From positions 14,601 through 78,600 of the forward strand of contig JAGKXC010000001.1 of assembly GCA_021151535.1 (NCBI GenBank): a stretch of DNA of 64,000 nucleotides. Reading direction: 5' to 3'. Made by a program: the position numbers and the translations under genes. The DNA comes from Sphingobacteriia bacterium. GTDB taxonomy: Bacteria; Bacteroidota; Bacteroidia; NS11-12g; UBA955. The notes below the pieces were generated by a model. It was not told where the DNA came from, did no database searches, and saw only the letters and a list, made by a program, of their open reading frames with translations. Of this stretch, positions 1-30,270 are shown piece by piece; the first letter of the stretch is position 1; each line of letters begins with the position of its first letter.

Positions 1-916
1 CTATTCCCATTCCAAAAGCAATAGTTGCCACAATTACATGACAATCTTCCATCAAAAATGCATCCTGATGTTGTGCCCTTACCTTAGAATCCAATCCCGC
101 ATGATAGGCCAATGCTTTGATGCCGTTCATGTTCAACATCTCCGCTATTTCTTCTACCTTTTTTCGCGATAAACAATAAATTATTCCCGATTTACCAGTT
201 CTTGCCTTGATAAATGAAATAATCTCCTTATGCACAATGTCCTTGCGTCCTTTTGGGCGAACCTGATAAAATAAATTCGAACGATTAAAAGAGCTTTTAA
301 ACAATTTTGCATCAGACATACCCAAATTCTTCTGAACATCCTGTTGCACCTTGGGTGTTGCGGTAGCAGTTAATGCAATCAATGGAACATCATCAATGGC
401 TTTTACCATTTGTTTTATACGGCGATATTCCGGTCTAAAATCATGACCCCATTCCGATATACAGTGAGCTTCATCAACTGCAACAAAAGAAATTTTAATC
501 TTCTTTAGTAAATCAATGGTTTCATCCTTTTTTAACGTTTCAGGAGCTACATACAACAGCTTTGTTTCACCAGATAAAATATCATTGGTAACTTGAGTTA
601 ATTCCGTTTTACTCAATGAACTATTAAGAAAATGCGCCAATGAACTACTCTGTGCGAATCCCCTGATGTTATCTACTTGATTTTTCATCAAAGCAATCAA
701 TGGAGAAATAACAATCGCCGTTCCCTCCATCATTACCGCAGGCAATTGGTAGCACATGCTTTTACCAGCGCCAGTTGGCATAATTACAAAGCAATCTTCG
801 CCTGATAAAATGCTATTGACTACATCCTCTTGGTTACCTTTAAAACCATCAAATCCAAAGAATTCCTTCAATACTCGTTTGGGGTCATAGACCACCGATG
901 CAACTTGGAGCGCCAT
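1..916 (-). CDS. recQ: ATP-dependent DNA helicase RecQ, N-terminal part (gene continues past window start; C-terminus not in window)
   Basis: Reverse-strand translation from ATG (rc) at ~914-916: MALQVASVVYDPKRVLKEFFGFDGFKGNQEDVVNSILSGEDCFVIMPTGAGKSMCYQLPA...DEAHCISEWGHDFRPEY...TATATPKV... Walker A (PTGAGKS) and DEAH box (DEAH) are typical of the RecQ family. The ORF is open to position 1. Confidence 0.8.
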   Translation of the reverse strand, partial: MALQVASVVYDPKRVLKEFFGFDGFKGNQEDVVNSILSGEDCFVIMPTGAGKSMCYQLPAVMMEGTAIVISPLIALMKNQVDNIRGFAQSSSLAHFLNSSLSKTELTQVTNDILSGETKLLYVAPETLKKDETIDLLKKIKISFVAVDEAHCISEWGHDFRPEYRRIKQMVKAIDDVPLIALTATATPKVQQDVQKNLGMSDAKLFKSSFNRSNLFYQVRPKGRKDIVHKEIISFIKARTGKSGIIYCLSRKKVEEIAEMLNMNGIKALAYHAGLDSKVRAQHQDAFLMEDCHVIVATIAFGMGI

Positions 917-1028
917 TACAGTTTTTAGAAATGTTATTAAGTGAGTTAAGTAGTGCTAAAGCGATGTGTGAAATTAATGAAAATTTAACGATTCTAAAAC
1001 CATTCAGTAGAAAAAATAGTAACCTTTC

Positions 1029-2042
1029 GTGCCATTTTTAATTATTTTGCACCAAAATCTACACAGCGTGTCAGAAAACACCCTCAATCATATCATTCAA
1101 CTTGGAAAATCCGCTATCAACGGCGAATTAAATTCCTTGAATAATTTAACCAATTTTATCAATGAAGACTTTGCAAACTGCATCAATGAAATTTTGCAAT
1201 CGCAAGCCAGAGTGATCATTACAGGTATTGGAAAAAGTGCAATTATCGCCCAAAAAATCGTCGCAACCATGAATTCAACCGGCCAACCCGCTCTATTCAT
1301 GCATGCAGCTGATGCTATTCATGGCGATTTGGGTATGATTCAAAAAAATGATACCGTAATCGTGATTTCAAAAAGCGGCAATACCCCCGAAATAAAAAGT
1401 TTAATCCCATTGATTAAACAATTCGGGAATTCCATCATCGCCATTGTTGGAAACACAGATTCATTCTTGGCTAAAAACAGCAAATTTATCCTCAATACAA
1501 CCATTGACCGTGAAGCTTGCCCCAACAACCTCGCCCCTACCACCTCCACAACTGCACAGTTATTAATGGGCGATGCACTTTCTATCGCCTTATTAGAAAT
1601 GCGCAATTTCTCAGCCAACGATTTTTCTAAATTTCATCCCGGCGGAGCCCTGGGTAAGCAATTATATTTACAATGCGAACATATTGCCCAAAATAATCCT
1701 AAACCTTTCGTAACATTAAATACTCCTTGGAAAGAAGTAATATTTAATATCTCCCAAAACCGCCTAGGTGCCACTGCAGTTGTAAATGATCAAAATTCAA
1801 TCATCGGAATCGTTACAGATGGCGATGTACGAAGAATGTTGGAAAATAATAACAACCTTGCAAATCTATGTGCTGAGCAAATCATGAGCCCATCACCCAC
1901 CACTTTGGATGCAGAAACTATGGCCATCGAAGCCGCCCAACTTATGCAAACAAAGAAAATTACTCAAATACCTATTACAAAAAACAATTTATACTTCGGC
2001 TTTGTACATTTGCACGACCTTTATCGCGAAGGAATTTTATGA
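1029..2042 (+). CDS. kdsD: KpsF/GutQ-family sugar isomerase (arabinose-5-phosphate isomerase, SIS domain + tandem CBS). GTG start at 1029 is uncertain; an alternative GTG lies near 1064.
   Basis: SIS motif GIGKSAIIAQKIVATMNSTGQPALFMHAADAIHGDLGMI and C-terminal CBS pair (ATAVVNDQNSIIGIVTDGDVRR ... TQIPITKNNLYFGFVHLHDL). Length is about 320-337 aa, as for KdsD. Confidence 0.7.
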   Translation: MPFLIILHQNLHSVSENTLNHIIQLGKSAINGELNSLNNLTNFINEDFANCINEILQSQARVIITGIGKSAIIAQKIVATMNSTGQPALFMHAADAIHGDLGMIQKNDTVIVISKSGNTPEIKSLIPLIKQFGNSIIAIVGNTDSFLAKNSKFILNTTIDREACPNNLAPTTSTTAQLLMGDALSIALLEMRNFSANDFSKFHPGGALGKQLYLQCEHIAQNNPKPFVTLNTPWKEVIFNISQNRLGATAVVNDQNSIIGIVTDGDVRRMLENNNNLANLCAEQIMSPSPTTLDAETMAIEAAQLMQTKKITQIPITKNNLYFGFVHLHDLYREGIL

Positions 2043-3121
2043 CCCAAAATAAAAATCATTATGTAATCATCATGGCTGGAGGTATCGGATCTCGCTTTTG
2101 GCCGGTGAGTAAAAAATCCTTCCCTAAGCAATTCATTGATATTTTAGGAACTGGCGAATCCCTTATAAAACAAACATTTAATCGATTTACTCACTTAGTA
2201 CCAGAAGAAAATATCTTTATAGTAACCAATAAAGATTACGCAGAATTGGTTCAGGAACATATCCCACAGATTAAAACTTCCAGAATCATTTTAGAACCTT
2301 CAGCAAAAAACACAGCGCCTTGTATTGCTTTGGCTAATTTGCATATCAAATCAATCAATCCTGAAGCAACCATCCTTGTGGCTCCTAGCGATCATCTAAT
2401 ATTGAGCGAAATAAAATTTATCCAAACTGCAAAAGTTGCAATTTCATTTGCAGAATCTAATCCATCTCTTCTAACACTTGGAATTAAACCAACAAGACCA
2501 GACACTGGATACGGTTATATTCAATTTAATAAAACTGAATTACAAGATGGCATCTATAAAGTAAAAACCTTCACAGAAAAACCAACCCTAGATATCGCCA
2601 TAAGCTTCCTTGAAAGCAAAGAATTTCTTTGGAATGCAGGCATCTTCGTTTGGTCATTGAAATCCATTTCTAATAGTATTGAACAACACCTACCAGAAAT
2701 TCACCAATTGTTTGCAGAACTAGATGTGAATGCACCAAATTATCATGTTGAATTAGAAAAATCATACGCACAATGCCCTTCTATTTCTATCGATTATGGA
2801 ATCATGGAAAAAGACGATTTTGTTTGTGTACTTCCTTCTGAATTTGGTTGGAGCGATTTAGGAACTTGGAAATCACTTTGGGATGTGTCTGATAAAGACC
2901 CATACCAAAATGCCCTCATTGGTAAAAATACCCACGCATTTGATTCCAAAAACTCCTTGGTATTCAACGATACAGACAAACTCGTTGTTATTTCAGGTGT
3001 TGATAATCTTGTAGTTGTGGAATCTCAAAATGTACTTTTGGTAATCAACAATGAAAAAGAACAAGAAGTTAAAACTGTAGTTGGAGCAATTAAAGATCAA
3101 TACAAAGGAAAATACGATTGA
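2039..3121 (+). CDS. mannose-1-phosphate guanylyltransferase (GDP-mannose pyrophosphorylase, nucleotidyltransferase fold)
   Basis: N-terminus MTQNKNHYVIIMAGGIGSRFWPVSKKSFPKQF has the GGxGxRxxP sugar-nucleotidyltransferase motif. 360 aa. The start overlaps the upstream stop (ATGA at 2039-2042), suggesting translational coupling. Confidence 0.7.
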   Translation: MTQNKNHYVIIMAGGIGSRFWPVSKKSFPKQFIDILGTGESLIKQTFNRFTHLVPEENIFIVTNKDYAELVQEHIPQIKTSRIILEPSAKNTAPCIALANLHIKSINPEATILVAPSDHLILSEIKFIQTAKVAISFAESNPSLLTLGIKPTRPDTGYGYIQFNKTELQDGIYKVKTFTEKPTLDIAISFLESKEFLWNAGIFVWSLKSISNSIEQHLPEIHQLFAELDVNAPNYHVELEKSYAQCPSISIDYGIMEKDDFVCVLPSEFGWSDLGTWKSLWDVSDKDPYQNALIGKNTHAFDSKNSLVFNDTDKLVVISGVDNLVVVESQNVLLVINNEKEQEVKTVVGAIKDQYKGKYD

Positions 3122-3171
3122 TTTTGTAGGATTTTTTTGAAATCTTTGGTAATTTTTTTTATTTTTGTATT

Positions 3172-3189
3172 GTTATCGAATTCGATAAC
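3172..3189. repeat. 18-bp perfect palindrome GTTATCGAATTCGATAAC (contains an EcoRI site) in the intergenic region upstream of the DMT transporter gene; candidate operator
   Basis: Read directly from the sequence; its reverse complement is identical. The surrounding region is a T-rich spacer. Confidence 0.35.
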
Positions 3190-3224
3190 GCCAACTGTTA
3201 CGCGCTTTTATATACCAACATCCT

Positions 3225-3256
3225 GGCCGTGCCAAAAGCGCGGCCTTGATTTTTTA
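3225..3256 (+). terminator. Rho-independent terminator after the guanylyltransferase gene
   Basis: GGCCGTGC-caaaa-GCGCGGCC stem (8 bp with one G-U) followed by TTGATTTTTT. Confidence 0.5.
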
Positions 3257-3287
3257 AAGCCAATCCACTTCAAACCCATTTGTAATT

Positions 3288-4235
3288 ATGTCTAACCGAG
3301 CAAAAGCCCTCTTAGCACTTCACATTGCCGTATTTCTTTGGGGATTCACTGCTATTCTCGGAAAACTAATTTCCTATGGCTCAATCACCCTTGTTTGGCA
3401 CCGCATGCTTCTAACAGGGGCAATTTATTTACTCATTCCTGCCGTTTGGAAAAGCTTAAAAGGAATTACCCCAAAAACAATCATCACATTCGCATTAATC
3501 GGATTGGTAGTTTGTGCTCATTGGTTAACTTTTTATGGATCAATCAAATTGGGAAATTCCGTTTCCATTACTCTGGCTTGCTTAGGCTCAGCCTCATTCT
3601 TTGCTTCAATCATTGAACCTTTAGTTTTGAAACAACCTTTTTCAAAACGCGACATGGGAATCGGGCTTTTTGTAATCCTCGGAATTCTGCTGATTTACTA
3701 TTCATCCCAATTCTCAAATTCTAAAAATAATCTTCAAAACACCTCTTTAACCAACGCCATTTTAACCGGATTACTTAGCGCCGCCCTGGCAGCAATCTTT
3801 ACTTCCCTTAACAAAAAGTATATTACAACCGCACATCCCCTTGCAATTTCAACCATTGAGATGATTTCAGGTGCTCTGGCACTAACCTTGATAATTCCTG
3901 TTTATCTACCAGAAATTCCTGCTTTTCCATCCTTAGATTTCACAGCACTCAATGCAAATAATTTCATGAGCGGACCTTGGGATATCATTTGGATCCTGAT
4001 CCTAGCCGTTCTGTGCACCAATTTAACTTTTTATCTTGGCACTTATGCGCTTAACCATTTAAGTGCATTTACAAGCAATTTAACAGTAAATCTGGAGCCC
4101 ATTTATGGCATAATATTAGGTGCCGTAATTTTCAACGAAAACAAAGAATTGAATACCGATTTCTACCTAGGTACATCCATGATTCTTCTGGCGATATTCA
4201 CCCAAGCTTACTTAAGCACTAAGAAAAATAAATAG
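3288..4235 (+). CDS. DMT-superfamily (EamA-like) permease, about 10 TM helices
   Basis: 315 aa, hydrophobic throughout, with two repeated 5-TM halves (HIAVFLWGFTAILGK... / AISTIEMISGALALTLIIPV...) typical of EamA/RhaT transporters. Confidence 0.55.
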   Translation: MSNRAKALLALHIAVFLWGFTAILGKLISYGSITLVWHRMLLTGAIYLLIPAVWKSLKGITPKTIITFALIGLVVCAHWLTFYGSIKLGNSVSITLACLGSASFFASIIEPLVLKQPFSKRDMGIGLFVILGILLIYYSSQFSNSKNNLQNTSLTNAILTGLLSAALAAIFTSLNKKYITTAHPLAISTIEMISGALALTLIIPVYLPEIPAFPSLDFTALNANNFMSGPWDIIWILILAVLCTNLTFYLGTYALNHLSAFTSNLTVNLEPIYGIILGAVIFNENKELNTDFYLGTSMILLAIFTQAYLSTKKNK

Positions 4236-4265
4236 ATCAGGGAGCAATTATCGCCTCCCACAATT

Positions 4266-5744
4266 TTAATATGCCTTGGCAAATACTACCCTGCCAGCAC
4301 TTGGCTTGCCAGTTAATACACAAACACCCGCCTCTTCCTTACGGTCTAATGGAATACAACGAATGGTTGCTTTGGTCATCTCCTTGATCTTCTCCTCCGT
4401 TTCGCCCGTTCCATCCCAATGTGCCATTGCAAATCCTTCTTTCACCTGAATTACATCCAAAAACTCCTCCCAAGAATTCACCTCAAACACCTTCTCATTT
4501 CTCCATTCTTGTGCCCTGTTAAACAAGTTGCTTTGAATATCATCTAGCAAATTCGATACATAGTCTATCACCCCATCCATCGCTACCACATTTTTTTCTT
4601 TTGTATCTCTTCTGGCGATTTCTATCGTTCCGTTTTCTAAATCTCTATTTCCAACAGCAAGCCTTACTGGTACACCTTTCAGTTCCCATTCAGCAAATTT
4701 AAACCCTGGCTTCAACGTGTCTCTATGATCAAATTTCACCGTAATTCCCAACTTCTTCCAAGCCTGTATAAATGGAGCCATGGCTGCCTCTATTTTTTGC
4801 AAATCTTCCTCCGTTTTGAATACAGGTACTATCACTACATGAATGGGTGCCAACTTAGGTGGTAAAACCAATCCCTCATCATCAGAATGAACCATAATTA
4901 ATGCTCCCATCAATCGGGTTGAAACACCCCAACTTGTTGCCCATACATGCTCCAACTTGCCTTCTTTACTCTGGAATTTAACGTCAAATGCCTTTGCAAA
5001 ATTCTGACCTAAAAAGTGTGAAGTTCCCATCTGTAACGCCTTTCCATCTTGCATCATCCCCTCAATACAATAGGTATCATCAGCACCTGCAAATCGCTCG
5101 TTCTCTGTCTTTACACCTTTAATAACAGGAATCGCCATGAAATTTTCTGCAAACTCCGCATACACTTCCAACATTTTCACAGTTTCCTCAATCGCTTCCG
5201 CCTTTGTAGCATGAGCTGTATGTCCTTCCTGCCACAAAAATTCTGCAGTTCTTAAGAACAATCTTGTTCTCATCTCCCACCTCACAACATTCGCCCATTG
5301 GTTAATCAAAATTGGCAAATCTCTGTAACTCTGAATCCAGTTTCTATAGGTATTCCAAATAATAGCTTCACTCGTAGGTCGTACCACCAGTTCCTCTTCC
5401 AATTTGGAATCAGGATCCGCCATCAACGTACCTGGCTTATCAGGATTAGCCTTCAAACGGTAATGCGTTACAACAGCACACTCCTTAGCAAATCCTTCCG
5501 CATTCTTCTCTTCCTTCTCAAATAAACTTTTTGGTACAAACAATGGAAAATAGGCATTGGTATGTCCTGTTTCTTTAAACATATCATCCAATTGGCGTTG
5601 AATCTTCTCCCAAATTGCATATCCATAAGGCTTTATTACCATGCATCCTTTAACTGCACTATGTTCAGCCAGGTCCGCATTTTTAACCAATTGATTATAC
5701 CATTCGCTATAATTTTCCGATCTTTTTACTTTTTCAAAAGCCAT
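4266..5744 (-). CDS. proS: proline--tRNA ligase (archaeal/eukaryote-like class II ProRS, the type usual in Bacteroidota)
   Basis: [49 protein letters not shown]...; class II motifs present; C-terminal ...VFAKAY. Start taken at the MAFEK Met (5744) rather than the track start 5762 because a TAnnTTTG -7 motif sits at ~5760-5767. Confidence 0.85.
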
Positions 5745-5759
5745 AATCCTATTTAAAAA

Positions 5760-5767
5760 CAAAAATA
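5760..5767 (-). promoter_or_regulatory. candidate Bacteroidota sigma-A -7 element (TATTTTTG on minus strand) for proS
   Basis: Reverse complement of caaaaata; 15 nt upstream of the proposed proS ATG. Confidence 0.3.
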
Positions 5768-5771
5768 AGCA

Positions 5772-5806
5772 TAAAAAAAGAGTCCCAACCTATCGATTGG
5801 GACTCT
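5772..5806 (-). terminator. Rho-independent terminator for nrdJ (hairpin plus T-run on minus strand)
   Basis: AGAGTCCCAA-cctatcga-TTGGGACTCT 10-bp perfect stem at ~5779-5806. On the minus strand it is followed by TTTTTTTA (plus-strand 5771-5778). Confidence 0.55.
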
Positions 5807-5835
5807 TTATAATGTTTAATGTTAAATGACTATTA

Positions 5836-8800
5836 TTAACTACAACCTAAACTATTACCGCAATTCAAACACTTATAACATGTGCCAGATCTAACAGTAA
5901 TATGTCCACAACCATTACAAGCCGGAGCATCAGTTTGTACTTCCTTCAAATAATCTTGCATGTCTTTTTTAGATTGCAATGGCTCATCCATGGAAACTAC
6001 GGGTTGAGCAGCAGCTTTCGTTGGTTGAGGCGCCAAACTTACCAATGGCACAAACTCACTAACAACTGGTGGTTCTACTTTATCCGTTGAACGCATTTCA
6101 GAAGGCTTAACTTGAACCAAATCATCTCTTCTCAAATATTCAAATCCTAACAATCTGAAGATGTAGTCTACAATTGAAGTTGCATTCTTGATATTTGGAT
6201 GACCCTCAACCATTCCGCTTGGCTCGAAACGTGTAAATGCAAACTTATCTACAAACTCTTCCAAAGGAACACCATACTGCAAACCTACAGAAACTGCAAT
6301 AGAGAAACAGTTCATCAAACTTCTGAAACTCGCTCCCTCTTTGTGCATATCAATGAAGATTTCACCCAATGTTCCGTCATCATATTCACCCGTTCTTACA
6401 AAGATTGTCTGCCCTCCAACTCTACCCTTTTGAGTAAACCCATTTCTGCGATTTGGTAAACGCTTCTTTTCTACAATATTTGATAACTGACGCTTGAACT
6501 TAGTATCTGTGCTCTCATTCAAGATTCTCTTCGCAGCTTCTAATACGATCTCAGGAGTTAACTCTTCAGCAATTTTAACAACTGAAGATCCTGATACCGC
6601 TTTATCTGTTGAAGCTGAAGCAGATTCTTCCTTATCATCAGCACTTTCAGATTTATTACTTAAAGGCTGACTCAATTTACAACCATCTCTGTACAACGCA
6701 TTCGCTTTCAAGCCCAATTTCCAACTCATTTCGTAGCAAGATTTAATATCATCAACAGTAGCCTCATTTGGCAAGTTGATGGTCTTACTAATCGCACCAG
6801 AAATAAATGGTTGTGCAGCACCCATCATGCGAATATGAGCATGTGCATGGATATAACGCTCACCCTTGTTACCACAACGGTTGGCGCAATCAAATACCGG
6901 ATAGTGTTCCTCTTTCAAGAATGGAGCACCCTCAATTGTCATTGTGCCTGCCACATAATCATTTGTTTCATTAATTTGCTCGCGAGTAAAGCCCAACGCT
7001 TGCAACATATTAAACTTAGGACTGTTGTACTGTTCTGCAGTAAAGCCCAAACGCTGCATAGTTTCTTCACCCAAAGTATATTGGTTGAATACAAATCCAA
7101 TTTCAAATGCCATTGGAGCTTCTTTCTCAATTTTCGCCAAATCTGCCTCATTGAAACCCTTTGCTGTCAATGATTCATGGTTGATATGAGGTGCGCCAAC
7201 GAAAGTCTGATAACCTTTTGCGTAGTTAACAATTGCATCTATCTCTTCTTGAGGATAACCCAAGTTTTTCAATGCCAATGGAACAGTGTTGTTTACAATC
7301 TTGAAGTATCCACCACCAGACAATTTCTTGTACTTAACCAAAGCAAAATCAGGCTCAATACCTGTAGTATCGCAATCCATCAACAAACCAATGGTTCCTG
7401 TTGGCGCAATTACCGTAGATTGTGCATTTCTAAATCCATATTTTTCACCCCACTGTACAGCCTTATCCCATGAGTTACAAGCAGCTTTCAATAGGTAATC
7501 AGGACAGAATTTTTCATTCAAACATACAGGTGAAATACCCAAACCTTCAAATGCCAATGGTGTATTATAAGCAGCATAACGGTGATTGCGAATTACACGC
7601 ATCATATGCTTTTTATTCTTTTCATACATGCGGAATGGACCCTTAACAGCAGCCATCTCAGCTGATGTAGCGTAAGCAGTACCCGTTAAAATCGCCGTAA
7701 CCGCACCACAAATCGCTGTAGCCTCTTCACTGTCGTAAGGAATACCCGCACTCATTAATACAGAACCTAAGTTCGCATATCCCAATCCCAATGTGCGATA
7801 GTCATAACTCAACTGCGCAACTTCTTTACTTGGGAACTGAGCCATCAAAACAGAAATTTCCAATACAGCCGTCCAAAGTCTTGAAGCATATTCCAATGCA
7901 TCAACATCAAATGTGCAAGCATCTTCACTGAAGAATTTACGCAAATTCAACGATGCCAAATTACAAGCTGTGTTATCTAAGAACATATACTCGCTGCAAG
8001 GATTAGAAGCATTAATTCTTCCTCCCTCAGGACAAGTATGCCATTCGTTGATGGTATCATCGTACTGAACACCAGGATCAGCACAAGCCCATGCAGCATC
8101 GCCAATTGCATCCCAAACTTGTTGAGAAGGCAATGATTTCATTACTTGACCGTTAGAACGGGCGATGAAATCCCAATCTTCACCTTTCTCTAATTTCTCA
8201 AAAAATCTATGAGGAATACGAACTGAGTTGTTACTGTTCTGTCCAGATACAGTTGCATATGCCTCACCTTCGTAATCACTCGCATAACCAGCTTGAATCA
8301 AAGCCGCTACCTTTCTTTCTTCATCCTTCTTCCAGTTGATAAACTCCATGGCTTCAGGGTGATCTAAATCCAAACAAACCATCTTAGCCGCTCTACGTGT
8401 GGTACCTCCACTCTTGATAGCTCCCGCAGCGCGGTCACCAATCTTCAAGAAACTCATCAAACCACTACTTGTTCCTCCACCACTTAGCTTTTCACCCGCT
8501 CCACGTACACCACTAAAGTTAGTTCCAACTCCTGAACCATATTTGAAAATTCTCGCCTCTCTTACCCACAAATCCATAATACCACCCTCGTTTACCAAAT
8601 CATCATCAACACTCAAAATAAAACAAGCATGTGGCTGTGGACGCTCATACGCAGAAGTACTCTTCATCAACTTCTCTGTATCAGGATCTACAAAATAATG
8701 ACCCTGTGGCTTACCTGTAATGGCATAACTACTATACAAACCCGTATTAAACCATTGTGGTGAATTAGGTGCAGCTTCCTGATTCAACATCGAATAAACC

Positions 8801-20516: not shown

Positions 20517-22316
20517 CTAGAAATTACTGCTTATTGTAAATCTAACACCGCTGAAAGCAGGCTCAACACGACAAATACCACCAGAACAGTTTACACCCTG
20601 TTGTTGCTTTAGGTAACTCAATGTAAACACAGTGTTCTTCTCAATATACCCGATAAAGAATGTAGGATAATGCAACACCCTATCAGCAATTACGCCCTTC
20701 ATTACATCATATCGATGTGGTTGTACATTCACCATATCACCAACCGCAACACTTAAGTTCTTTTTGATATAAAATTCCACCATCATATTGGCGAAGGAAC
20801 CCTGATCTTTCGGTGTGTTTAAATATTGAGCCTCAATTCTTAAGCTTCTACCTTCTTCCATTCTGTGAAGCCATTCAAAAAATGGTGTGATCGTCTTAAC
20901 AACTTGGTATTCAGGCTCTTGCTCGTATCTTGCTTGGTTATAATAAACCCTCTGAATACCCCATTTAATTTTATCATGTTGAGCCGTAGTATGCAAAAAC
21001 TCCAAATACATTTCATGATAAAGTTTCTCTGCTTGCATCACGCCAGCTGCATTCATCTTGCCATTACTCGCCAAACTTTGTACATAACTACCATTAGCGG
21101 TAATTTGCAGCCCTTTCATCGGTTTAATCTCTAACTCAGCTTGCAATCCATCTTCGCCCAATGCTTGACCAGGAGCATTGTAACGAGCCAATAAACGATA
21201 TGTGTTCTGCCTAGTTAATGAAGGCAAATAAGAAATCAATCCATTCAACAAAGTTTCTGTGGGCGATGTTCTAAATGAAAACTGGTCTACGTGCCTAGCT
21301 TGTACATTGATTCCAATAGACGCCTGTCTTGACTTCTCCCATGCCTTTCTTTCCTTAGCAGACATTTCCCTTTCAACTCCGCCTTCTGTCACTTTCGGTG
21401 CGTTTTCGGTACTCAACCACTTTATACCGCTTTTCCCCCAACTCAAAGAAGAATAAAGCACCTTACCAGGCTTTAAAACATACTTGTTTTCAAATCCCAA
21501 AACAGCCTCCGGCGTTTTGTAATTACCCTCAACATTCCAAGAAAAATCGCCAATACTGTATGTGAAATAACCATTAAATCCATAAACATTGTATTTCGGA
21601 TAAAAACGTTCAGCCAAATCATATCCATTGATATTGCTAACCAAAATATCCATTGTGGCCCTATCCAAAGTTCTGTTCACAGCAGATGCTCCCACTTGTA
21701 CATCGCCAAATTTCGCCCCCTTCCCCAAATCAAATCCGCCCTCTAAATTCAATCCACTCATCACTTGCTTGCTATATCCAAAACGGTTCTTAATGTTTCC
21801 TTTTTGATTTCCTGCAAATCCTTTTAACGTCCAACGATCACCCAACTTATACTTCAATCGAATTCCTTGCATGGCATAATCAATGCCAATCATACGCTGT
21901 TCGTAACTCCTAAATAAAATACCCGATCCAAATTGATCATAAAATGAACCTACAGTAATATCCAATCTATCAATCACTTTATTGGCTTGCCAAAATCCAA
22001 TGCCATGATCTGTATAAGCATCCTGAGGATCCAACAAAGGACTGTTATTAAAAGCATCATATCGCATAATAAACTGATAACCCTTAATCCTATATTGCAT
22101 GAATAACCACGCGTCTGCACTCGCCCTATTTTCACGATATACCTTGGTACTAGCACCTATACTATCATCGCGCAAATATTTTTGATAGTTCATTAATAAG
22201 TTACCACTAAACTGACCCTTTTCCTCTGAATTACTAGTAGTTTGAGCTCGCGCACCAGCAATAATTGCCGTAAGCATTACAATCGAAAGCAATTGACGAA
22301 TATTCATCTCCTGCAA
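20517..22316 (-). CDS. outer-membrane beta-barrel protein of unknown function (putative porin-like)
   Basis: Signal peptide [23 protein letters not shown]. Alternating amphipathic beta-strand pattern and C-terminal ...FTISSNF aromatic terminus. Confidence 0.45.
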
Positions 22317-24865: not shown

Positions 24866-25894
24866 GTGTTAGCATCAACCCAAAATAATATTATTCACTT
24901 CGGCGTTGTAGGTCACGGACATATTGGCAAGCGCCATGCCCATCTAATTCAACAAAATCAACATTGTAAACTACTGGGCATTTGTGACAATAATCCAAAC
25001 CAACTAATTGATATACAAAAAGATATTTCCACTTTCGACACGCTTGAAAAATTGATTTTTTCCAAACCAGAAATTGATATTATCTCTATTGCAACTCCAA
25101 ACGGATTACACGCAGAACATGCAATTTTTGCCCTTGAGAATAAAAAACATGTGGTAATTGAAAAACCCATGGCACTTTCTAGTTTAGAATGCGACAACAT
25201 TATTAATGCTGCTGAAAAGCATAACAAGAAAATCTTTTGTGTTATGCAAAATCGATTTTCACCAACCGCCCAATGGCTTAAACAAACCATTGAAAACAAA
25301 CACTTAGGTGAAATTTATCAAGTAATTGTACAATGCTATTGGAACAGAGACCACAGATACTATACCCCAAATCATTGGCACGGAACTAAGCATCTTGACG
25401 GTGGAGTTTTATTTACACAATTTTCTCATTTCATAGACATGATTTACTGGCTATTTGGCGATTTATCCCTTACTTATAGTGCGCAACATAATTTCAATCA
25501 CCATTCAATAACCGAATTCCCAGACTCAGGAATGTTCAATTTCTCCTTTCAGAAAAATGGGAAAGGCACATTTATTTACTCAACTTCACTATTTCAAGAA
25601 AATTTTGAAAGTAGTATTACAATCATTGGCGAAAAAGGCACGGTTAAAGTAGGTGGACAGTACATGAATGAAATCAGTTATTGTAATATTGAAAATCATC
25701 CAAAACCAGTTTTACCTGAATCGCCAGCTCCCAATAATTATGGTGCATACCAAGGATCTGCCGCAAACCACTCATTTGTATTTCAAGAAGTTATAAATAC
25801 ATTATTAGAAAATAAACCCATTTTTACTACAGCTTCAGACGGTAAGAAAGTTGTAGAAATTATTGAATCAGCAAACCTAAATTCAAGTTATTGA
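24866..25894 (+). CDS. Gfo/Idh/MocA family oxidoreductase
   Basis: N-terminal NAD(P)-binding motif HFGVVGHGHIGKRH and EKP motif (VVIEKPMAL). Confidence 0.75.
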   Translation: MLASTQNNIIHFGVVGHGHIGKRHAHLIQQNQHCKLLGICDNNPNQLIDIQKDISTFDTLEKLIFSKPEIDIISIATPNGLHAEHAIFALENKKHVVIEKPMALSSLECDNIINAAEKHNKKIFCVMQNRFSPTAQWLKQTIENKHLGEIYQVIVQCYWNRDHRYYTPNHWHGTKHLDGGVLFTQFSHFIDMIYWLFGDLSLTYSAQHNFNHHSITEFPDSGMFNFSFQKNGKGTFIYSTSLFQENFESSITIIGEKGTVKVGGQYMNEISYCNIENHPKPVLPESPAPNNYGAYQGSAANHSFVFQEVINTLLENKPIFTTASDGKKVVEIIESANLNSSY

Positions 25895-25998
25895 TTTTCA
25901 CCATATTGTAGAAAAAAATATTTTTCAAACTTTTTTGGGGGGAATCGGTTTTTCTAGTGTAATAACCAAGATTTTACCTTTCCGGAAAAAGGCAAATT

Positions 25999-27060
25999 AT
26001 GAAAGAACAATTGGAATCTAATTTACTAACCAAGTACGCAGCTGGATTAATGACCCCTGAAGAGTTGAGAAAACTTGAAGAGTGGTTAAAGAAAAACCCA
26101 CAGTACGTGCCAACTTTGGCAATCATTCAAAAACAAGTTTCCGCCATGCTTCAACCTTCTAATCTTAACTTTTAAACCATGAGCAGCGATTTACACAATG
26201 ATCCAGAATTCAAAGAAATTTGGGATCTAGCCAGCAATTATCAATATAAATTCGACAGCCAAAATGATTTGGCTTTTAATAAATTTATGGCCGAAAATAA
26301 CAAACCTACATTGAAAGTTGAAAAAAACTATTCGAAGTGGTTAAGCGTTGCTGCAGCGGCGATTTTGCTTTTGGCCAGTGTTGTTGTTATTTCCAAATAC
26401 AACAAATCTGAAACCCTCCTTTCTTGCGGAAATAATCAAGTAGTCAACAATATTCAAACTTTAACCTTAGAAGACGGCACTGTAATTACTCTTAATAACA
26501 ATGCTAAAATCAAGTGGGAACTTTACGACAAATCCAGAAAAGTTAGTCTAGTAGGTAGAGCGCATTTTGAAGTTGCAAAAGATGCGAACAGACCATTTAC
26601 AATAAATACCAATCAAACCCAAGTAACTGTTTTAGGCACTGGCTTTGATGTTGTTGGTTACCCAAATAAACCAACTGAGGTAATTGTGAATCATGGCAAA
26701 GTTGAAGTAGCAAGTATAGTAAATAACAAAAAAGCAGCCACCTCTATTTTAACCAAAAACATGAAAGCCATGGTGAATAGCAATGAAATAAGTGTAAATA
26801 AAAATTATAACGCAGAAGCAATCTCTTGGGCAACCGGCGAAATCAAATTCAACGGCACTCCGTATAACGATGTAATTTCTGCACTTGAAGAATATTATCA
26901 AGTTGAAATTGAAAATATTCCAGTTCCAAATTCTCAAATCGGCTTAATTATCGGAAACCCAAAATTTACAGGCAAATTCAATAAAGAAACAGACGCCGCA
27001 ATGGCTTGTAAAATCGTTTCAAAAGCACTTAATCTGAATTTGGAAATTCAACAAAACTAA
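25999..27060 (+). pseudogene. FecR-family transmembrane anti-sigma factor interrupted by a single in-frame TAA (26173-26175). Either a disrupted gene or read-through, and possibly a sequencing error.
   Basis: ORF 25999..26175 (59 aa, below the track threshold): MKEQLESNLLTKYAAGLMTPEELRKLEEWLKKNPQYVPTLAIIQKQVSAMLQPSNLNF* carries the canonical FecR N-terminal (TPEE...WL) motif. ORF 26179..27060 continues in the same reading frame with a TM helix and FecR domain. Confidence 0.55.
26179..27060 (+). CDS. FecR-domain protein (TM helix + periplasmic FecR domain); C-terminal portion of the interrupted anti-sigma factor
   Basis: WLSVAAAAILLLASVVVISKY TM helix, then LEDGTVITLNNNAKIKWE...VSLVGRAHFEVAKDANRPFTINTNQTQVTVLGTGFDVV, typical of FecR (PF04773). 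Confidence 0.7.
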   Translation: MSSDLHNDPEFKEIWDLASNYQYKFDSQNDLAFNKFMAENNKPTLKVEKNYSKWLSVAAAAILLLASVVVISKYNKSETLLSCGNNQVVNNIQTLTLEDGTVITLNNNAKIKWELYDKSRKVSLVGRAHFEVAKDANRPFTINTNQTQVTVLGTGFDVVGYPNKPTEVIVNHGKVEVASIVNNKKAATSILTKNMKAMVNSNEISVNKNYNAEAISWATGEIKFNGTPYNDVISALEEYYQVEIENIPVPNSQIGLIIGNPKFTGKFNKETDAAMACKIVSKALNLNLEIQQN

Positions 27061-27116
27061 TTTTATTAAGATTTTTGCATTCCTAATGCAAAAACTTATA
27101 TCAAATTTATCAAAAT

Positions 27117-27150
27117 AAACCCACGTTAAACAACATTTGGCGTGGGTTTT
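27117..27150 (+). terminator. candidate terminator hairpin after the FecR gene. An AT-rich hairpin TTTTTGCATTcctaATGCAAAAA lies just upstream at ~27072-27094.
   Basis: AAACCCACG-(15 nt loop)-CGTGGGTTT 9-bp stem followed by a T-rich stretch. Confidence 0.4.
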
Positions 27151-27190: not shown

Positions 27191-27198
27191 TAACTTTG
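27191..27198 (+). promoter_or_regulatory. candidate -7 element TAACTTTG upstream of the T9SS cargo gene
   Basis: TAnnTTTG 18 nt upstream of ATG 27217. Confidence 0.3.
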
Positions 27199-27216: not shown

Positions 27217-30200
27217 ATGAAAAGAATTCTATTGATATTATTACTGCTTTGTAATGCATACGATGCATTCGGGCAAAATGAATCAATAGACAATTTCTTT
27301 ATTCCCAATAAAAATCAATGGGGAGAAAACGATCCATCAATCGCAAGAGTTGAAATTCCTCAAGGAATGATTTACATCCATTCCAATAAATTGAGATTTT
27401 ATTTAACCAATCCTGAAGATGCTCACAAAAAACATCTTTCTCACCATTTCAAAGGAAAAGATACCCAATTTACTGTACAGCATGAAGTTTTTGATATATT
27501 CTTCGGTGATTCTACATCAGAATCAAACCGTTTTCAATTTCAAAATTTTGCTCCATTCTATTATAACTTTTTCCTTTCTAATAACCCCAAAAACCAAATT
27601 ACTAAGCTTTATCCCTGTCGTGAATTAATTATCCTAAATGTTTATCCTCAAATTGATGTTAAACTCTACTTTAACAACCAAAAATTAGAATTAGATTGGA
27701 TTTTGAAAAAAGGGGCAAATCCAAACCACATTAATATCTCCATTCCCAAGGAAATAAAATCACAACTCATCAATAATAACATTGAGATTACATCGCATTT
27801 TAGCCAATTTATAATTCAAAAACCCATCGCATACCAATCAAAAAAATCATTCAAATCCATAAACTGCCGATACGTAAAACAAAAAAACAATTTGTATGGA
27901 TTTAAAATTGGCTCTTACGATACCACCCAAAACCTAATTATAGATCCAATTCTGGTTTTCTCCACTTATAGTGGCTCAAAAGCAGATAATTTTGGATTCA
28001 CCGCCACTTACGATACGTCTGGCTGCTTATATGCCGGTGGTATTGTAGATGCGTCAACCAGAACTTATCCAGTAACTACTGGCGCATTCCAAACAACCTA
28101 TGGTGGTTCTGGAGCCGGTAATCCACCCGTAGGTCTGGCTTGTGATATTTCAATTTCTAAATATTCCCCTGATGGGCTAACGTTACTTTACGCCACATAC
28201 TTAGGTGGATCAGACGATGAATACCCCCATAGCCTAATCGTAAATCCAAAAAATCAATTGGTGATTTTTGGCACTACTTTGTCCTTAGATTTTCCAATAA
28301 AATCCGATACTACTTACCAAAAAACTCATAGCGGTGATTATGATATCTTCATTGATATCCTTAGCCAAGATGGCTCCAAATTGATAGCCGGCACATTCAT
28401 GGGTGGTAACGATGTAGACGGATTCCAAAGTGATAATTTCTCTAGCGAACTTATTTACAATTATGCCGATAATTATCGGGGCGATATAGCAACAGACCAA
28501 TTCGGTAATATTTATATCGCAACTTGCACCAGAAGTACCGATTTCCCCGTTTCACCAGGAGCTTACCAAAAAAAAATATCTGGTGAAACTGATGCCGTTG
28601 TTTTTAGTCTTTCTCCTAACCTTAGAACTTTGCGATGGGCTAGCCTTTATGGTGGCTTATTAGATGATGCCGCCTATTCCATTAAAATTGATGATTCCTC
28701 TAGAGTTTTCGTTGGTGGAGGTACACGATCAGCCAATTTCCCAATTCAAGGTAATACATACCAGAAAACAGCAAGTAGCAATAATGTAGACGGATTTATT
28801 ATTCGCATAGACCAAAACACTGGAGCATACCAGCTTGGAACCTACTGGGGTACATCAATGTACGACCAAATCTATTTTATCGATTTAGACGCAAATAATA
28901 ACGTTTATTTTACAGGTCAAACCGAAGGTTCAGTTAACAGAACTATTGGTACATACGGGAAAGACAATACTTCCCAATTTATTGGTAAATTCAATCTCAA
29001 TCTTTCTAAGATTGAATTCATAACAACATTTGGTTATAGAACCAACGGTATTCCCGAATTATCTCCTTCCGCTTTCATGGTAGATGAATGCTATAACATT
29101 TATTTCAGTGGCTGGGGTTGTGATATCGGTGTTGGAAATGCAGGTACTACTTTTAACCTCCCCGTAACCGCAGATGCTCACCAAAAAACAACGGATAGAA
29201 ATGATTTTTACCTCATCGTTTTAGGCAAAAATGCCAACAACCTTAAATATGCCTCCTATTTTGGTGGAAATAAATCAGAAGATCATGTAGATGGAGGAAC
29301 TTCAAGATTCGATAATCGTGGAATTATTTACCAAAGTGTTTGTGCCAGCTGCCCAAATAGACCCCCTGGCCTAAACGATTTCCCAACCTCTCCCGCAAAT
29401 GTAGCCTTCAAAAATAACGTAAGTATACGTTGCTCAAATGCTAGTTTTAAACTCGATTTTCGCCTGGGTTACAGCATCGATGCACTTTTTGCTTCTACTC
29501 CAAAACGCTTCTGCCTAGAATCACCCGTTAACTTCCAACCCTTTAGGTTCTTCCCAAAAGCAACCTATACATGGTATTTCGGCGATGGAGATTCGAGTAA
29601 TTCCTACGCTCCTACACACACATACAAAGACACAGGTAAATTTATCGTTAAACTAATAGTTGTTGATTCCTTAAGTTGTAACGCAAGAGCAGTTTATCAA
29701 GATACAATTCAAGGATTTCCTAATCCTATCGCCAAATTAAAATATACAGACGAACCCTGCGAACCAGGAATCAAGCTTCAAGCAACCACTAAATATGCCG
29801 ATTCGATTACGTGGATTCTCGATTATCAGCATGATACCATTACCAAATCCTCCTCCACAACCGAAATAAATTATCAATATCCATTGGGCGTATATTGGCC
29901 AAAAATTATTACTAAAAACAATCAATCAGGCTGTAAAAGTATAGATAGTATAGAACTCCATGCCAATACAGATAGTACCTTAGACGTTTTAATTGCCAAT
30001 GTATTTACCCCTAATAATGATGGGAAAAACGACTGCTTTAGAATTTTTGGCATTTCCAATAAATGCGATGAAGCTGAAGTATTTATCTTCAATAGGTGGG
30101 GAGAAAGAATCTATTACAGCAAAGATCTTGATAATTGCTGGAACGGAAAGGTAAATAACATAGGTCCCGAATTGCCATCCGGAACCTATTTTTATCAGTT

Positions 30201-30270
30201 ACACTTAATCAAAACCAGGAATGCCAAACTACCAGAATGGCTTGAAGGTACAATTAATTTATTGCGATAA
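27217..30270 (+). CDS. large secreted T9SS cargo protein: signal peptide, SBBP beta-propeller repeats, PKD domain, type-B (gliding-motility-associated) C-terminal sorting domain
   Basis: Signal peptide MKRILLILLLLCNAYDAFGQ. Repeated DxxGNIY.../FP.T.GAYQ SBBP-like units (e.g. DQFGNIYIATCTRSTDFPVSPGAYQKKISG). PKD signature YTWYFGDGDSSNSYAPTHTYKDTGKFIVKLIV. C-terminal NVFTPNNDGKNDCFRIFG...FNRWGERIY...SGTYFYQLHL, the T9SS type-B CTD. Confidence 0.75.
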   Translation: MKRILLILLLLCNAYDAFGQNESIDNFFIPNKNQWGENDPSIARVEIPQGMIYIHSNKLRFYLTNPEDAHKKHLSHHFKGKDTQFTVQHEVFDIFFGDSTSESNRFQFQNFAPFYYNFFLSNNPKNQITKLYPCRELIILNVYPQIDVKLYFNNQKLELDWILKKGANPNHINISIPKEIKSQLINNNIEITSHFSQFIIQKPIAYQSKKSFKSINCRYVKQKNNLYGFKIGSYDTTQNLIIDPILVFSTYSGSKADNFGFTATYDTSGCLYAGGIVDASTRTYPVTTGAFQTTYGGSGAGNPPVGLACDISISKYSPDGLTLLYATYLGGSDDEYPHSLIVNPKNQLVIFGTTLSLDFPIKSDTTYQKTHSGDYDIFIDILSQDGSKLIAGTFMGGNDVDGFQSDNFSSELIYNYADNYRGDIATDQFGNIYIATCTRSTDFPVSPGAYQKKISGETDAVVFSLSPNLRTLRWASLYGGLLDDAAYSIKIDDSSRVFVGGGTRSANFPIQGNTYQKTASSNNVDGFIIRIDQNTGAYQLGTYWGTSMYDQIYFIDLDANNNVYFTGQTEGSVNRTIGTYGKDNTSQFIGKFNLNLSKIEFITTFGYRTNGIPELSPSAFMVDECYNIYFSGWGCDIGVGNAGTTFNLPVTADAHQKTTDRNDFYLIVLGKNANNLKYASYFGGNKSEDHVDGGTSRFDNRGIIYQSVCASCPNRPPGLNDFPTSPANVAFKNNVSIRCSNASFKLDFRLGYSIDALFASTPKRFCLESPVNFQPFRFFPKATYTWYFGDGDSSNSYAPTHTYKDTGKFIVKLIVVDSLSCNARAVYQDTIQGFPNPIAKLKYTDEPCEPGIKLQATTKYADSITWILDYQHDTITKSSSTTEINYQYPLGVYWPKIITKNNQSGCKSIDSIELHANTDSTLDVLIANVFTPNNDGKNDCFRIFGISNKCDEAEVFIFNRWGERIYYSKDLDNCWNGKVNNIGPELPSGTYFYQLHLIKTRNAKLPEWLEGTINLLR

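Follow-up and report, generated by a model that had tools for sequence, protein, structure and literature searches.

In the textbook account, FecR-type regulators are single transmembrane (TM) proteins that inhibit their extracytoplasmic function (ECF) sigma factor and, after proteolysis, activate it; how the ~50-residue N-terminal piece of FecR switches between anti- and pro-sigma function is still debated. Here, we analyzed a FecR-type locus in 64,000 nt of DNA from a Sphingobacteriia bacterium of the phylum Bacteroidota (GenBank assembly GCA_021151535.1, contig JAGKXC010000001.1, positions 14,601 to 78,600), herein referred to as the window. The locus contains two adjacent open reading frames (ORFs). 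ORF1 encodes a homolog of the sigma-binding N-terminus of FecR-type regulators, and ORF2 encodes the TM helix and the periplasmic domains. The module clearly descends from a FecR-type regulator, and its new feature is that the N-terminal anti-sigma part is encoded by a gene of its own.

In class I anti-sigma factors, helices 1-3 form a bundle contacting region 4 of the sigma factor, and helix 4, which follows a flexible linker, binds region 2 (PMC7406223). In Escherichia coli, residues 9-59 of FecR bind and activate FecI, the fragment FecR1-58 suffices for binding, and the proteolytic cascade normally frees an N-terminal pro-sigma peptide of ~50 residues (PMC9249621). FecR self-cleaves at the Gly-Thr bond G181/T182 and FoxR at G191/T192 (PMC9249621). 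FecR, FoxR, PupR, and the FecR-like proteins of Bacteroidota share the N-terminal motif hhKYhxGxxxxEExxxLxxW, one TM helix, and the FecR and FecR_C domains. The same parts are recognized at the analyzed locus, with the motif on ORF1. In contrast to these proteins, the sigma-binding N-terminus is here encoded by its own gene and has an additional helix-3-like segment, and the lineage of the window has neither an adjacent sigma gene nor an adjacent TonB-dependent transducer; the next gene encodes a type IX secretion system (T9SS) cargo protein. If ORF1 acts as FecR's N-terminal fragment does, its release would not require regulated proteolysis.

Several other described systems are comparable in part. 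ORF1 (58 aa) has the size of FecR1-58 and is homologous to the N-proximal, region-4-binding part of the fragments FecR1-58 and FecR1-85, which are engineered or proteolytic and act as constitutive pro-sigma factors (PMC9249621). Unlike them, ORF1 is a lineage-conserved gene of its own with only one conserved Trp position, and both activation and inhibition by its product are possible. NepR, CnrY, and the class II domains are likewise small (~60 aa) and helical, and ORF1, as they do, could bind an ECF sigma factor without sensing. In systems of the NepR and CnrY type, sensing is performed by a separate protein (CnrX, PhyR). No sequence relationship of ORF1 to NepR or CnrY was found; ORF1 derives from the class I FecR-type N-terminus. 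A natural re-partitioning of cell-surface-signaling modules is also represented by IutY of Pseudomonas putida, where sigma and anti-sigma are fused (PMC5411451, PMC9249621). The split pair is its mirror image, having arisen in the opposite direction, by fission of the anti-sigma factor. Finally, a T9SS cargo takes part in signaling to an ECF sigma factor in the PorA-PorXY-SigP system (PMC7712824, PMC12152298), but this system is a two-component one, whereas the present locus is FecR-like, and there is no homology between the two. Full-text searches of a paper collection for a split FecR, for DUF7948, and for a link between FecR and T9SS found no relevant description, and the available parts of the ECF reclassification paper and of the survey on class I anti-sigma factors describe no such split.

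ORF1 and ORF2 are two separate genes

In total, 80 genomic loci were fetched. A short FecR form orthologous to the window locus was found in 48 of them, nearly all from metagenome-assembled genomes of uncultured freshwater Bacteroidota. A homolog of ORF1 encoding 57-65 aa is located directly 5' of the short FecR gene in all 48 loci and is terminated by its own stop codon (TAA in 47 loci, TGA in one). Thus, the sigma-binding domain and the sensor, which FecR-type regulators carry on one polypeptide, are separated in all of these orthologs. Distances and frames were compared in 47 loci, the window included. The distance from the ORF1 stop to the ORF2 ATG varies from -14 to +7 nt, with some overlaps, and outside the clade it reaches +27 nt (L083 and L090). 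The relative frames 0, +1, and +2 are represented by 14, 21, and 12 loci, respectively, and the 14 in-frame loci have 1-2 codons between the ORFs. Since all three frames occur, the in-frame layout of the window is a one-in-three chance outcome. The codons between the ORF1 stop and the ORF2 ATG vary among loci, and the ATG of ORF2, as judged by alignment with canonical FecR, is found at one homologous position throughout.

The junction was also found in two independent metagenome assemblies from different samples (ENA ERZ3460577 and JGI 3300023179; loci L081 and L082), where it is identical, with 1 mismatch in 1180 nt. The exact ORF1 and ORF2 proteins are recorded as separate entries (P0143 and P0001, respectively) in NCBI, JGI, ENA, and Logan. 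A search with the joined ORF1 and ORF2 retrieved ~65 homologs of 281-315 aa, with identities from 100% to ~30%, and all of them correspond to the ORF2 part only. These proteins begin at one point, just past the canonical N-terminal motif, and lack LLxKYxxG. The ORF1 family comprises 142 clusters in a profile search of 5.8 billion proteins; the 120 clusters listed are all 55-95 aa long, and none of these 120 joins ORF1 and a FecR domain. Among 1.84 billion representatives, searched exhaustively with HMMER, no close relative with a fusion was found, the credible matches being 44-94 aa long. Compared with canonical FecR, the joined ORFs have a surplus of ~31 residues at the junction, so joining them does not rebuild a canonical FecR.

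Nucleotide differences in ORF1 at codon positions 1, 2, and 3 are 0.25, 0.12, and 0.51, respectively. Many synonymous codons are in use for its invariant residues, and an invariant Ser is encoded by both TCN and AGC. This pattern indicates that ORF1 is coding and under purifying selection. The mean pairwise identity is 69% for ORF1 and 42% for ORF2. A pseudogene is characterized by a lineage-specific stop, intact orthologs, and relaxed constraint, whereas the stop analyzed here is clade-wide and both ORFs are under purifying selection. A recoding site is characterized by a fixed frame relation and a conserved stop context, whereas the frames here are mixed and the spacer is variable. The TAA between ORF1 and ORF2 is therefore a gene boundary, not a lesion, and the split is old and under selection. 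The two genes form a closely coupled bicistron; they are predicted to be co-transcribed and are probably also translationally coupled.

A preliminary description of the window had placed ORF1, its TAA, and ORF2, 3 nt further on in the same frame, exactly as found here (Table 1). It had also assigned the anti-sigma motif to ORF1 and the TM helix and FecR domain to ORF2, in agreement with the profile, Pfam, PDB, and fold comparisons presented below. Its view of the two ORFs as one interrupted gene is not upheld, as the orthologs show two separate genes. It had named separate orthologous genes of unrelated function as the outcome that would overturn its reading; the genes are indeed separate, but their functions are related. 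Aligning the joined ORFs to intact FecR, as it had suggested, shows that ORF1 does supply the N-terminal motif, but with the surplus residues mentioned above. Its question about orthologous loci has a divided answer as well: none of the 48 short-form loci has an intact, unsplit gene, and the downstream T9SS gene is kept throughout the lineage.

The product of ORF1 is a stand-alone 58-aa protein, predicted to be cytoplasmic and to form three helices, and a homolog of the N-terminal, sigma-binding part of FecR-type regulators. In an hhalign comparison with the canonical FecR N-terminus, its residues 3-47 fall on columns 25-68 (probability 94.6%, E=7e-8), and two NCBIfam anti-sigma models recognize it through their first ~45 positions (E=1.7e-5 and 3.5e-3). 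Pfam matches of ORF1 alone are faint and below threshold (DUF4880, E=0.28), so its anti-sigma identity rests on profile methods. Among PDB sequences, the ORF1 profile found no meaningful match. AlphaFold2 (AF2) predicts helices at residues 2-14, 20-32, and 34-50, with a predicted local distance difference test (pLDDT) score of 85-91 over residues 11-40. Together with the homology to FecR and NCBIfam anti-sigma N-termini, these helices correspond to the class I bundle of helices 1-3, whose helix-1 motif contacts sigma region 4. ORF1 stops after helix 3, and the helix-4-like segment, NDxAWxKF, is found on ORF2 and not on the same chain. Because ORF1 is homologous to the part of FecR that binds and activates FecI and that is freed as a peptide by the cascade, it may be considered the gene-encoded counterpart, in an approximate mapping, of the FecR N-terminal pro-sigma fragment. 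A duplication linking the third helix of ORF1 to the first helix of ORF2 (NPQF versus DPEF) was also considered; it is statistically unsupported (hhalign, E=0.32) and is a suggestion only.

ORF2 has the single TM helix and the periplasmic FecR and FecR_C domains of FecR-type regulators. Pfam analysis identified FecR (E=5e-17) and FecR_C (E=1.6e-4), the latter with 22.1 bits versus a gathering cut-off of 24.4. Two cytoplasmic helices (aa 9-19, DPEFKEIWDLA, and aa 24-40) precede the TM helix (aa 52-74). They are followed by a FecR beta domain (aa 80-228) and an alpha/beta FecR_C domain (aa 229-290). The AF2 model (pLDDT 81) has the same composition: two short cytoplasmic helices, a TM helix, a beta-rich domain, and an alpha/beta C-terminal domain. 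The N-terminus of ORF2 aligns to canonical FecR columns 62-97 (profile-profile, E=2e-4). The periplasmic part matches 4M0N, a putative anti-sigma factor from Parabacteroides (E=6e-33), and PupR 6OVK (E=1.5e-8), and Foldseek comparison of ORF2 with the same two structures gave a probability of 1.00 and TM-scores of 0.68-0.72. Residues V151-D157 (VLGTGFD) are invariant in 17 diverse clade members. L152-G153-T154 within this segment is a candidate Gly-Thr self-cleavage site, on the assumption of positional equivalence to the sites of FecR and FoxR.

Expanded forms of the cytoplasmic segments were observed in two further cases. In a high-GC (~50%) sublineage with the same synteny (L046:5497-7037, L047:5401-7034, and L049:4328-6051; also L048, truncated), the FecR-like proteins reach 513-574 aa owing to several tandem copies of the cytoplasmic helix-4-like segment HPEAASNDAAWERMKAAIQ. 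The 417-aa protein P0261 consists of four tandem units resembling the anti-sigma N-terminus (FELVSAYLDGEVTAAERRQVEEWL...) followed by a TM-like segment, that is, a repeat-expanded anti-sigma domain.

Table 1. Features of the split FecR-type locus and its surroundings, in window coordinates.
Feature	Position	Strand	Description
ORF1	25999-26175	+	58 aa; TAA stop at 26173-26175
ORF1/ORF2 junction TAA-ACC-ATG	26173..26181	+	ORF1 stop, 3-nt spacer ACC (26176-26178), ORF2 ATG at 26179
ORF2	26179..27060	+	293 aa; in the window in the same frame as ORF1
ORF2 TM helix	26332-26400	+	aa 52-74; AF2
Candidate self-cleavage codons L152-G153-T154 of ORF2	26632..26640	+	Within the invariant VLGTGFD
Promoter-like element	25913..25960	+	T/A-rich tract, TTGGGGG, 15-nt spacer, GTGT; conserved upstream of ORF1
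Palindrome CCTTTCCGGAAAAAGG	25977..25992	+	Perfect core; 6 nt 5' of the ORF1 ATG
GFO_IDH_MocA oxidoreductase gene	24866-25894		5' of ORF1; Pfam
Two hairpins	27072-27094 and 27117-27149 (span 27072..27149)	+	3' of ORF2; RNA folding
TAnnTTTG-type -7 box, TAACTTTG	27191-27198	+	19 nt 5' of the cargo ATG
T9SS type B cargo gene	27217..30270	+	3' of ORF2; 1017 aa; DUF7948, SBBP, PKD, CHU_C
recQ-linked ECF sigma gene	-1849..-1352 (L106:562-1059)	-	165 aa; TIGR02985-type; outside the window

ECF sigma factors and the element upstream of ORF1

A profile that recovers the sigma gene from 24 canonical FecR loci detected no ECF sigma gene in the 64-kb window or in the 48 short-form loci. The relatives L087, L090, L110, and L113 do have a FecI-like ECF sigma gene adjacent to the pair. 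In other lineages, more divergent ORF1-like genes have a short FecR gene behind them whenever the contig extends far enough. The gene order of ECF sigma, ORF1-like gene, and short FecR, with the sigma gene immediately upstream, was found in L087, L090, L110-L112, and L113. The split pair of L113 is followed by a TonB-dependent receptor, which has CarbopepD_reg and Plug domains and an extended N-terminus, and this locus thus has the classical cell-surface-signaling layout with a split regulator. As in the loci of Bacteroidota that combine an ECF sigma factor, an anti-sigma factor, and a SusC-like protein, the pairs of these relatives are located behind a TIGR02985-type sigma gene, and the pair of L113 is located ahead of the receptor. 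In the window, the gene following the pair encodes the T9SS cargo, in which none of the domains Plug, STN, and TonB_dep_Rec is present. The nearest relatives of these sigma factors, from marine metagenomes, are followed by an unsplit FecR-like gene (~305 aa) and then by a TonB-dependent receptor.

The sigma factors of L087 (392-964) and L090 (9377-9964) have a hydrophobic C-terminal tail of ~30 residues past region 4 (...LLLFTSEIIFNIHWG and ...LLLIAPHLENAWGSLGG, respectively). The last codons of this tail overlap the TTGGGGG box described below, and other members of the family (165-170 aa) have no tail.

A candidate sigma gene for the window was located via synteny with recQ. A member of the sigma family, P0291, is found directly after recQ, in the order EamA-ManC-SIS-RecQ-sigma, which mirrors the left end of the window. 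Contig L106, from the same sample as a contig with identical ORF1 and ORF2, overlaps positions 1-7099 of the window without a mismatch and reaches 2411 nt beyond the window's left end. It contains an ECF sigma gene 1.35 kb past the left edge of the window and ~27.4 kb from ORF1. This gene is flanked by recQ (positions 1-916 in the window, minus strand, truncated) and a tRNA-ligase gene, and no anti-sigma gene was found beside it. The recQ-linked, L087, and L090 sigma factors all pass the TIGR02985 model (148-158 bits versus a cut-off of 126.4). A metagenome scan with the sigma alignment found canonical unsplit relatives only, and the unlinked sigma gene was not recovered. By family membership and the lack of an anti-sigma neighbor, the recQ-linked sigma factor is an obvious candidate partner for the split regulator.

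In the preliminary description, the regulator was called an orphan. It correctly reported that no ECF sigma gene is present in the window and that a Gfo/Idh/MocA gene is found upstream, where a sigma gene would be expected, but a TIGR02985-type sigma gene lies just beyond the window edge and sigma-linked pairs exist elsewhere. The search for a cognate sigma factor that it proposed thus yielded a candidate of the same subfamily, to be taken as a putative partner.

A conserved promoter-like element is located upstream of ORF1. In the window, TTGGGGG occupies positions 25935-25941 and GTGT positions 25957-25960, with a spacer of 15 nt counted from the fifth G, and the element ends 38 nt 5' of the ORF1 ATG. 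In the short-form clade, the element consists of a T-rich tract, TTGGGGG, a variable 15-nt spacer (14 nt in L001-L004), and (G/T)TGT, and it ends 27-45 nt before the ATG. Among 44 unique pattern-matched instances, GGGGG and TGT are invariant, and the spacer and flanks vary freely. There is one TTGGGGG-N15-GTGT element per locus and one in the 64-kb window. The element is kept in the high-GC loci lacking ORF1, in L085 and L086, which have unrelated contexts, and in the sigma-linked loci L087, L090, L110, and L113; L088 has a weaker version only. Its position is inside the spacer between the sigma gene and ORF1 in L110 and L113, and it overlaps the sigma stop codon in L087 and L090. The latter overlap prompted the idea that the element is a remnant of the C-terminus of a deleted sigma gene, which its spacer location in L110 and L113 rules out in general.

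Since two conserved boxes at a fixed spacing correspond to the layout of an alternative-sigma promoter, we propose TTGGGGG-N15-GTGT as such a promoter and as the target of the cognate ECF sigma factor. In L113, it would drive ORF1, FecR, and the receptor together. No further copies of the element were found elsewhere in the window or 5' of the recQ-linked sigma gene, and no regulon can therefore be defined. A related element (TAAGGGTA, ~14 nt, TTGT) was observed exactly at the sigma stop in L091-L096, which are canonical unsplit loci for a sigma factor, FecR, and a TonB-dependent receptor in marine Bacteroidota. This observation points to a promoter where the sigma and anti-sigma genes meet as a general trait of the sigma family.

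Other candidate regulatory structures are found on both sides of the pair. The palindrome CCTTTCCGGAAAAAGG is present in the window and in L005-L008, L011, L014, L015, L031, and L043, and other sub-clades lack it or differ there. It could function as an operator or as a hairpin that influences translation. A riboswitch or leader was considered for the conserved upstream DNA and dropped because the Rfam scan of the locus gave no match above gathering scores. The two hairpins downstream of ORF2 have a minimum free energy of -33.9 kcal/mol (z=-4.9), and GC-rich hairpins with T-runs are found at the same site in many orthologous loci. These hairpins are terminator-like and probably end the ORF1-ORF2 transcript.

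The T9SS cargo gene and the conserved block

The protein encoded downstream of the pair has a type B sorting domain (CHU_C, E=4.8e-22; TIGR04131, 59.5 bits versus a cut-off of 35) and an N-terminus, MKRILLILLLLCNAYDAFGQ, recognized by eye as a signal peptide. Thus, both features of a T9SS type B cargo, a C-terminal sorting domain and a signal peptide, are present. No STN-like signaling domain was detectable in this protein. The conserved block of the lineage is DUF6029 outer-membrane protein-MiaB-epimerase-(GFO)-ORF1-FecR-cargo-FabD, and five loci without GFO keep the trio of ORF1, FecR, and cargo. In every locus of the clade with a long enough contig, the cargo gene is directly 3' of the pair. 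Outside the clade, L083, with rearranged flanks, has a related cargo gene directly downstream of the pair, and L088, an unrelated context, has one nearby. The cargo is absent in L086, L090, and L110, and a TonB-dependent receptor takes its place in L113.

The TAnnTTTG consensus is the -7 box of Bacteroidota sigma-A promoters. Such a box was found 13-20 nt 5' of the cargo start in nearly all loci with a located start, including those with 25-nt spacers, and a terminator-like hairpin often precedes it. Within the block, the housekeeping neighbors are as conserved as the adjacency of the cargo. Because the cargo gene has its own promoter box, is absent from at least three contexts of the pair, and is part of general synteny, its functional link to the split pair is possible but unproven. 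The preliminary description had correctly noted the absence of a TonB-dependent receptor after the pair and the presence of the 1017-aa SBBP/PKD/T9SS gene, the two hairpins, and the TAnnTTTG motif. Its suggestion that the anti-sigma module is paired with the T9SS cargo is borne out as far as conserved adjacency is concerned, but this adjacency lies within general synteny, and the promoter box and the cargo-less loci do not favor a regulatory pairing.

Two more observations concern the surroundings of the pair. The predicted DUF6029 outer-membrane protein of the window (599 aa, 20517-22316, minus strand, E=8e-102) has no NCBIfam match, and most orthologous loci retain it within the conserved block. 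In L086, at positions 2400-3000, 3' of FecR in a context lacking the cargo, there are two copies, ~400 nt apart, of a sequence of 200 nt or more (…TCTTTTTTGGCATTGACCCAAAAAAGAAAC…). This sequence is found in a 2.2 kb region with only tiny ORFs and may be a repeat element.

Proposed mechanism and alternative explanations

We consider it probable that ORF1 and ORF2, as two real genes that are co-transcribed and likely coupled in translation, together constitute a naturally split FecR-type sigma regulator. In the proposed mechanism, ORF1 would be a free cytoplasmic three-helix protein equivalent to the sigma-binding helices 1-3 of FecR. ORF2 would be the inner-membrane half, in which a second helix-3-like segment and a segment resembling helix 4 are followed by a single TM helix and by a signaling domain of the FecR/PupR type in the periplasm. 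ORF1 would bind region 4 of a TIGR02985-type ECF sigma factor, and the cytoplasmic helices of ORF2 would supply the rest of the inhibitory contact and anchor the complex at the membrane. On a periplasmic signal, ORF2 would then be removed or rearranged, as in the regulated proteolysis (Prc/RseP) of FecR and FoxR. The freed sigma factor may retain ORF1 as a pro-sigma cofactor, like FecR 1-58, and would transcribe from TTGGGGG-N15-GTGT. The pair would thereby be under feedback control, and in other lineages the downstream TonB-dependent transducer would be expressed as well. In the organism analyzed here, the likely partner would be the otherwise unpartnered ECF sigma factor beside recQ.

Several observations weigh against this interpretation. 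Only one conserved Trp is found on ORF1, with the "IW" and "AW" positions on ORF2, and the match to E. coli FecR 1-58 is therefore approximate. The third helix of ORF1 (NPQF...) resembles an extra or duplicated helix 3 relative to the canonical proteins. In an AF2 model of fused ORF1 and ORF2, in which the ORF2 cytoplasmic helices have low confidence (52-66), packing of these helices with ORF1 is neither shown nor excluded. The high-GC loci L046, L047, and L049 have ORF2 and no ORF1, so ORF1 is dispensable for the role of ORF2 there. To our knowledge, the upstream element is unlike the well-known ECF promoter consensus sequences, and it could instead act as an operator or as a promoter read by a different sigma factor. 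The recQ-linked sigma factor is just 39-43% identical to the pair-adjacent sigma factors of L087, L090, and L110, the exact motif is lacking 5' of its gene, and many paralogous ECF sigma factors are frequent in Bacteroidota. For these three reasons, its pairing with the split regulator is that of a candidate only.

As an alternative, ORF1 alone could be a complete soluble anti-sigma factor, comparable to NepR and the short class II domains. In this case, ORF2 would only sequester ORF1 at the membrane and release it on a periplasmic signal, never touching the sigma factor. Consistent with such a partner switch, ORF1 is confidently predicted to be a three-helix unit by itself and is very strongly conserved, and the cytoplasmic part of ORF2 is short, varies more, and in one sublineage is expanded by repeats. 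Moreover, anti-sigma domains of less than 50 aa form a recognized separate class (PMC7406223). On the other hand, ORF2 retains homologs of helices 3 and 4 of the canonical proteins, and in class I anti-sigma factors this part makes the contact with sigma region 2. Furthermore, the loci without ORF1 keep both ORF2 and the promoter motif, which is hard to explain if ORF2 merely holds ORF1. We therefore regard this alternative as unlikely.

A more elaborate version of the split regulator can also be imagined, in which ORF1 is a permanently free pro-sigma cofactor whose access is gated by the ORF2 helices without intramembrane proteolysis. In the lineage of the window, the periplasmic FecR domain of ORF2 would then sense the neighboring DUF7948/SBBP cargo as it crosses the periplasm, instead of a TonB-dependent transducer, and couple an ECF response to T9SS load or surface display. 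This scenario is speculative, and we give it rather little credence.

It is also conceivable that, in the lineage of the window, the pair has been exapted to serve the T9SS cargo, for example as a scaffold in the periplasm or membrane or as a sensor of secretion load, with no sigma factor involved and with ORF1 having a new partner. No sigma gene is adjacent in ~50 orthologous loci, the cargo always adjoins the pair in this lineage and is again near it in the unrelated context of L088, and the path from PorA to PorXY to SigP provides a precedent for a T9SS cargo as a signaling ligand (PMC7712824, PMC12152298). However, the housekeeping neighbors are equally conserved, and the adjacency may be plain synteny. 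The cargo has its own TAnnTTTG box, often with a terminator before it, and no detectable STN-like domain. Loci L086, L090, and L110 have the pair but no cargo, L113 has the pair together with a TonB-dependent receptor, and the genome has a sigma factor of the same family lacking an anti-sigma factor of its own. Exaptation is therefore considered quite improbable.

The three explanations offered in the preliminary description all concern the stop itself, and as a group they are excluded by its presence in 48 of 48 orthologs, the mixed frames, and the matching independent assemblies. Programmed read-through or frameshifting would yield a full-length FecR besides the two separate products, which accords with the 14 of 47 loci that are in frame and 1-2 codons apart. 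Very little likelihood remains for it, as the three frames, the gaps from -14 to +27 nt, and the overlaps fit no single recoding mechanism, the codons from the stop to the ATG are unconserved, the ORF2 ATG is always at one homologous position, and the in-frame share of about one third equals the chance expectation. A recent nonsense mutation, making the locus a FecR pseudogene, would agree with the shared frame and with only the TAA and one codon lying between the ORFs in the window. It is practically negligible, given that the stop persists down to 31% ORF2 identity, that two thirds of the loci have the ORFs out of frame or overlapping, that both ORFs are under purifying selection, that the joined product is ~31 residues too long, and that exhaustive searches found no intact fused relative. 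A sequencing or assembly error at position 26173, for which the in-frame arrangement and nothing further speaks, has a similarly vanishing chance in view of the junction shared with ERZ3460577 and 3300023179 and the separate database records of the exact proteins.

Returning to the split FecR-type regulator, the family comprises at least 142 clusters from several lineages of Bacteroidota. Its members occur with or without an adjacent sigma gene and with a TonB-dependent receptor, a T9SS cargo, or neither downstream. ORF1 is shorter than common ORF-length cut-offs and has no Pfam match above threshold, so annotation pipelines may overlook it or give it varying names. Short FecR proteins can be read as complete anti-sigma factors, and the locus may be flagged as a pseudogene; thus, annotation errors are likely. 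The element TTGGGGG-N15-GTGT is a candidate promoter for an ECF regulon and is directly testable. As a natural family in which the N-terminal piece is encoded by its own gene, these loci provide a system for separating the anti- and pro-sigma functions both genetically and biochemically.

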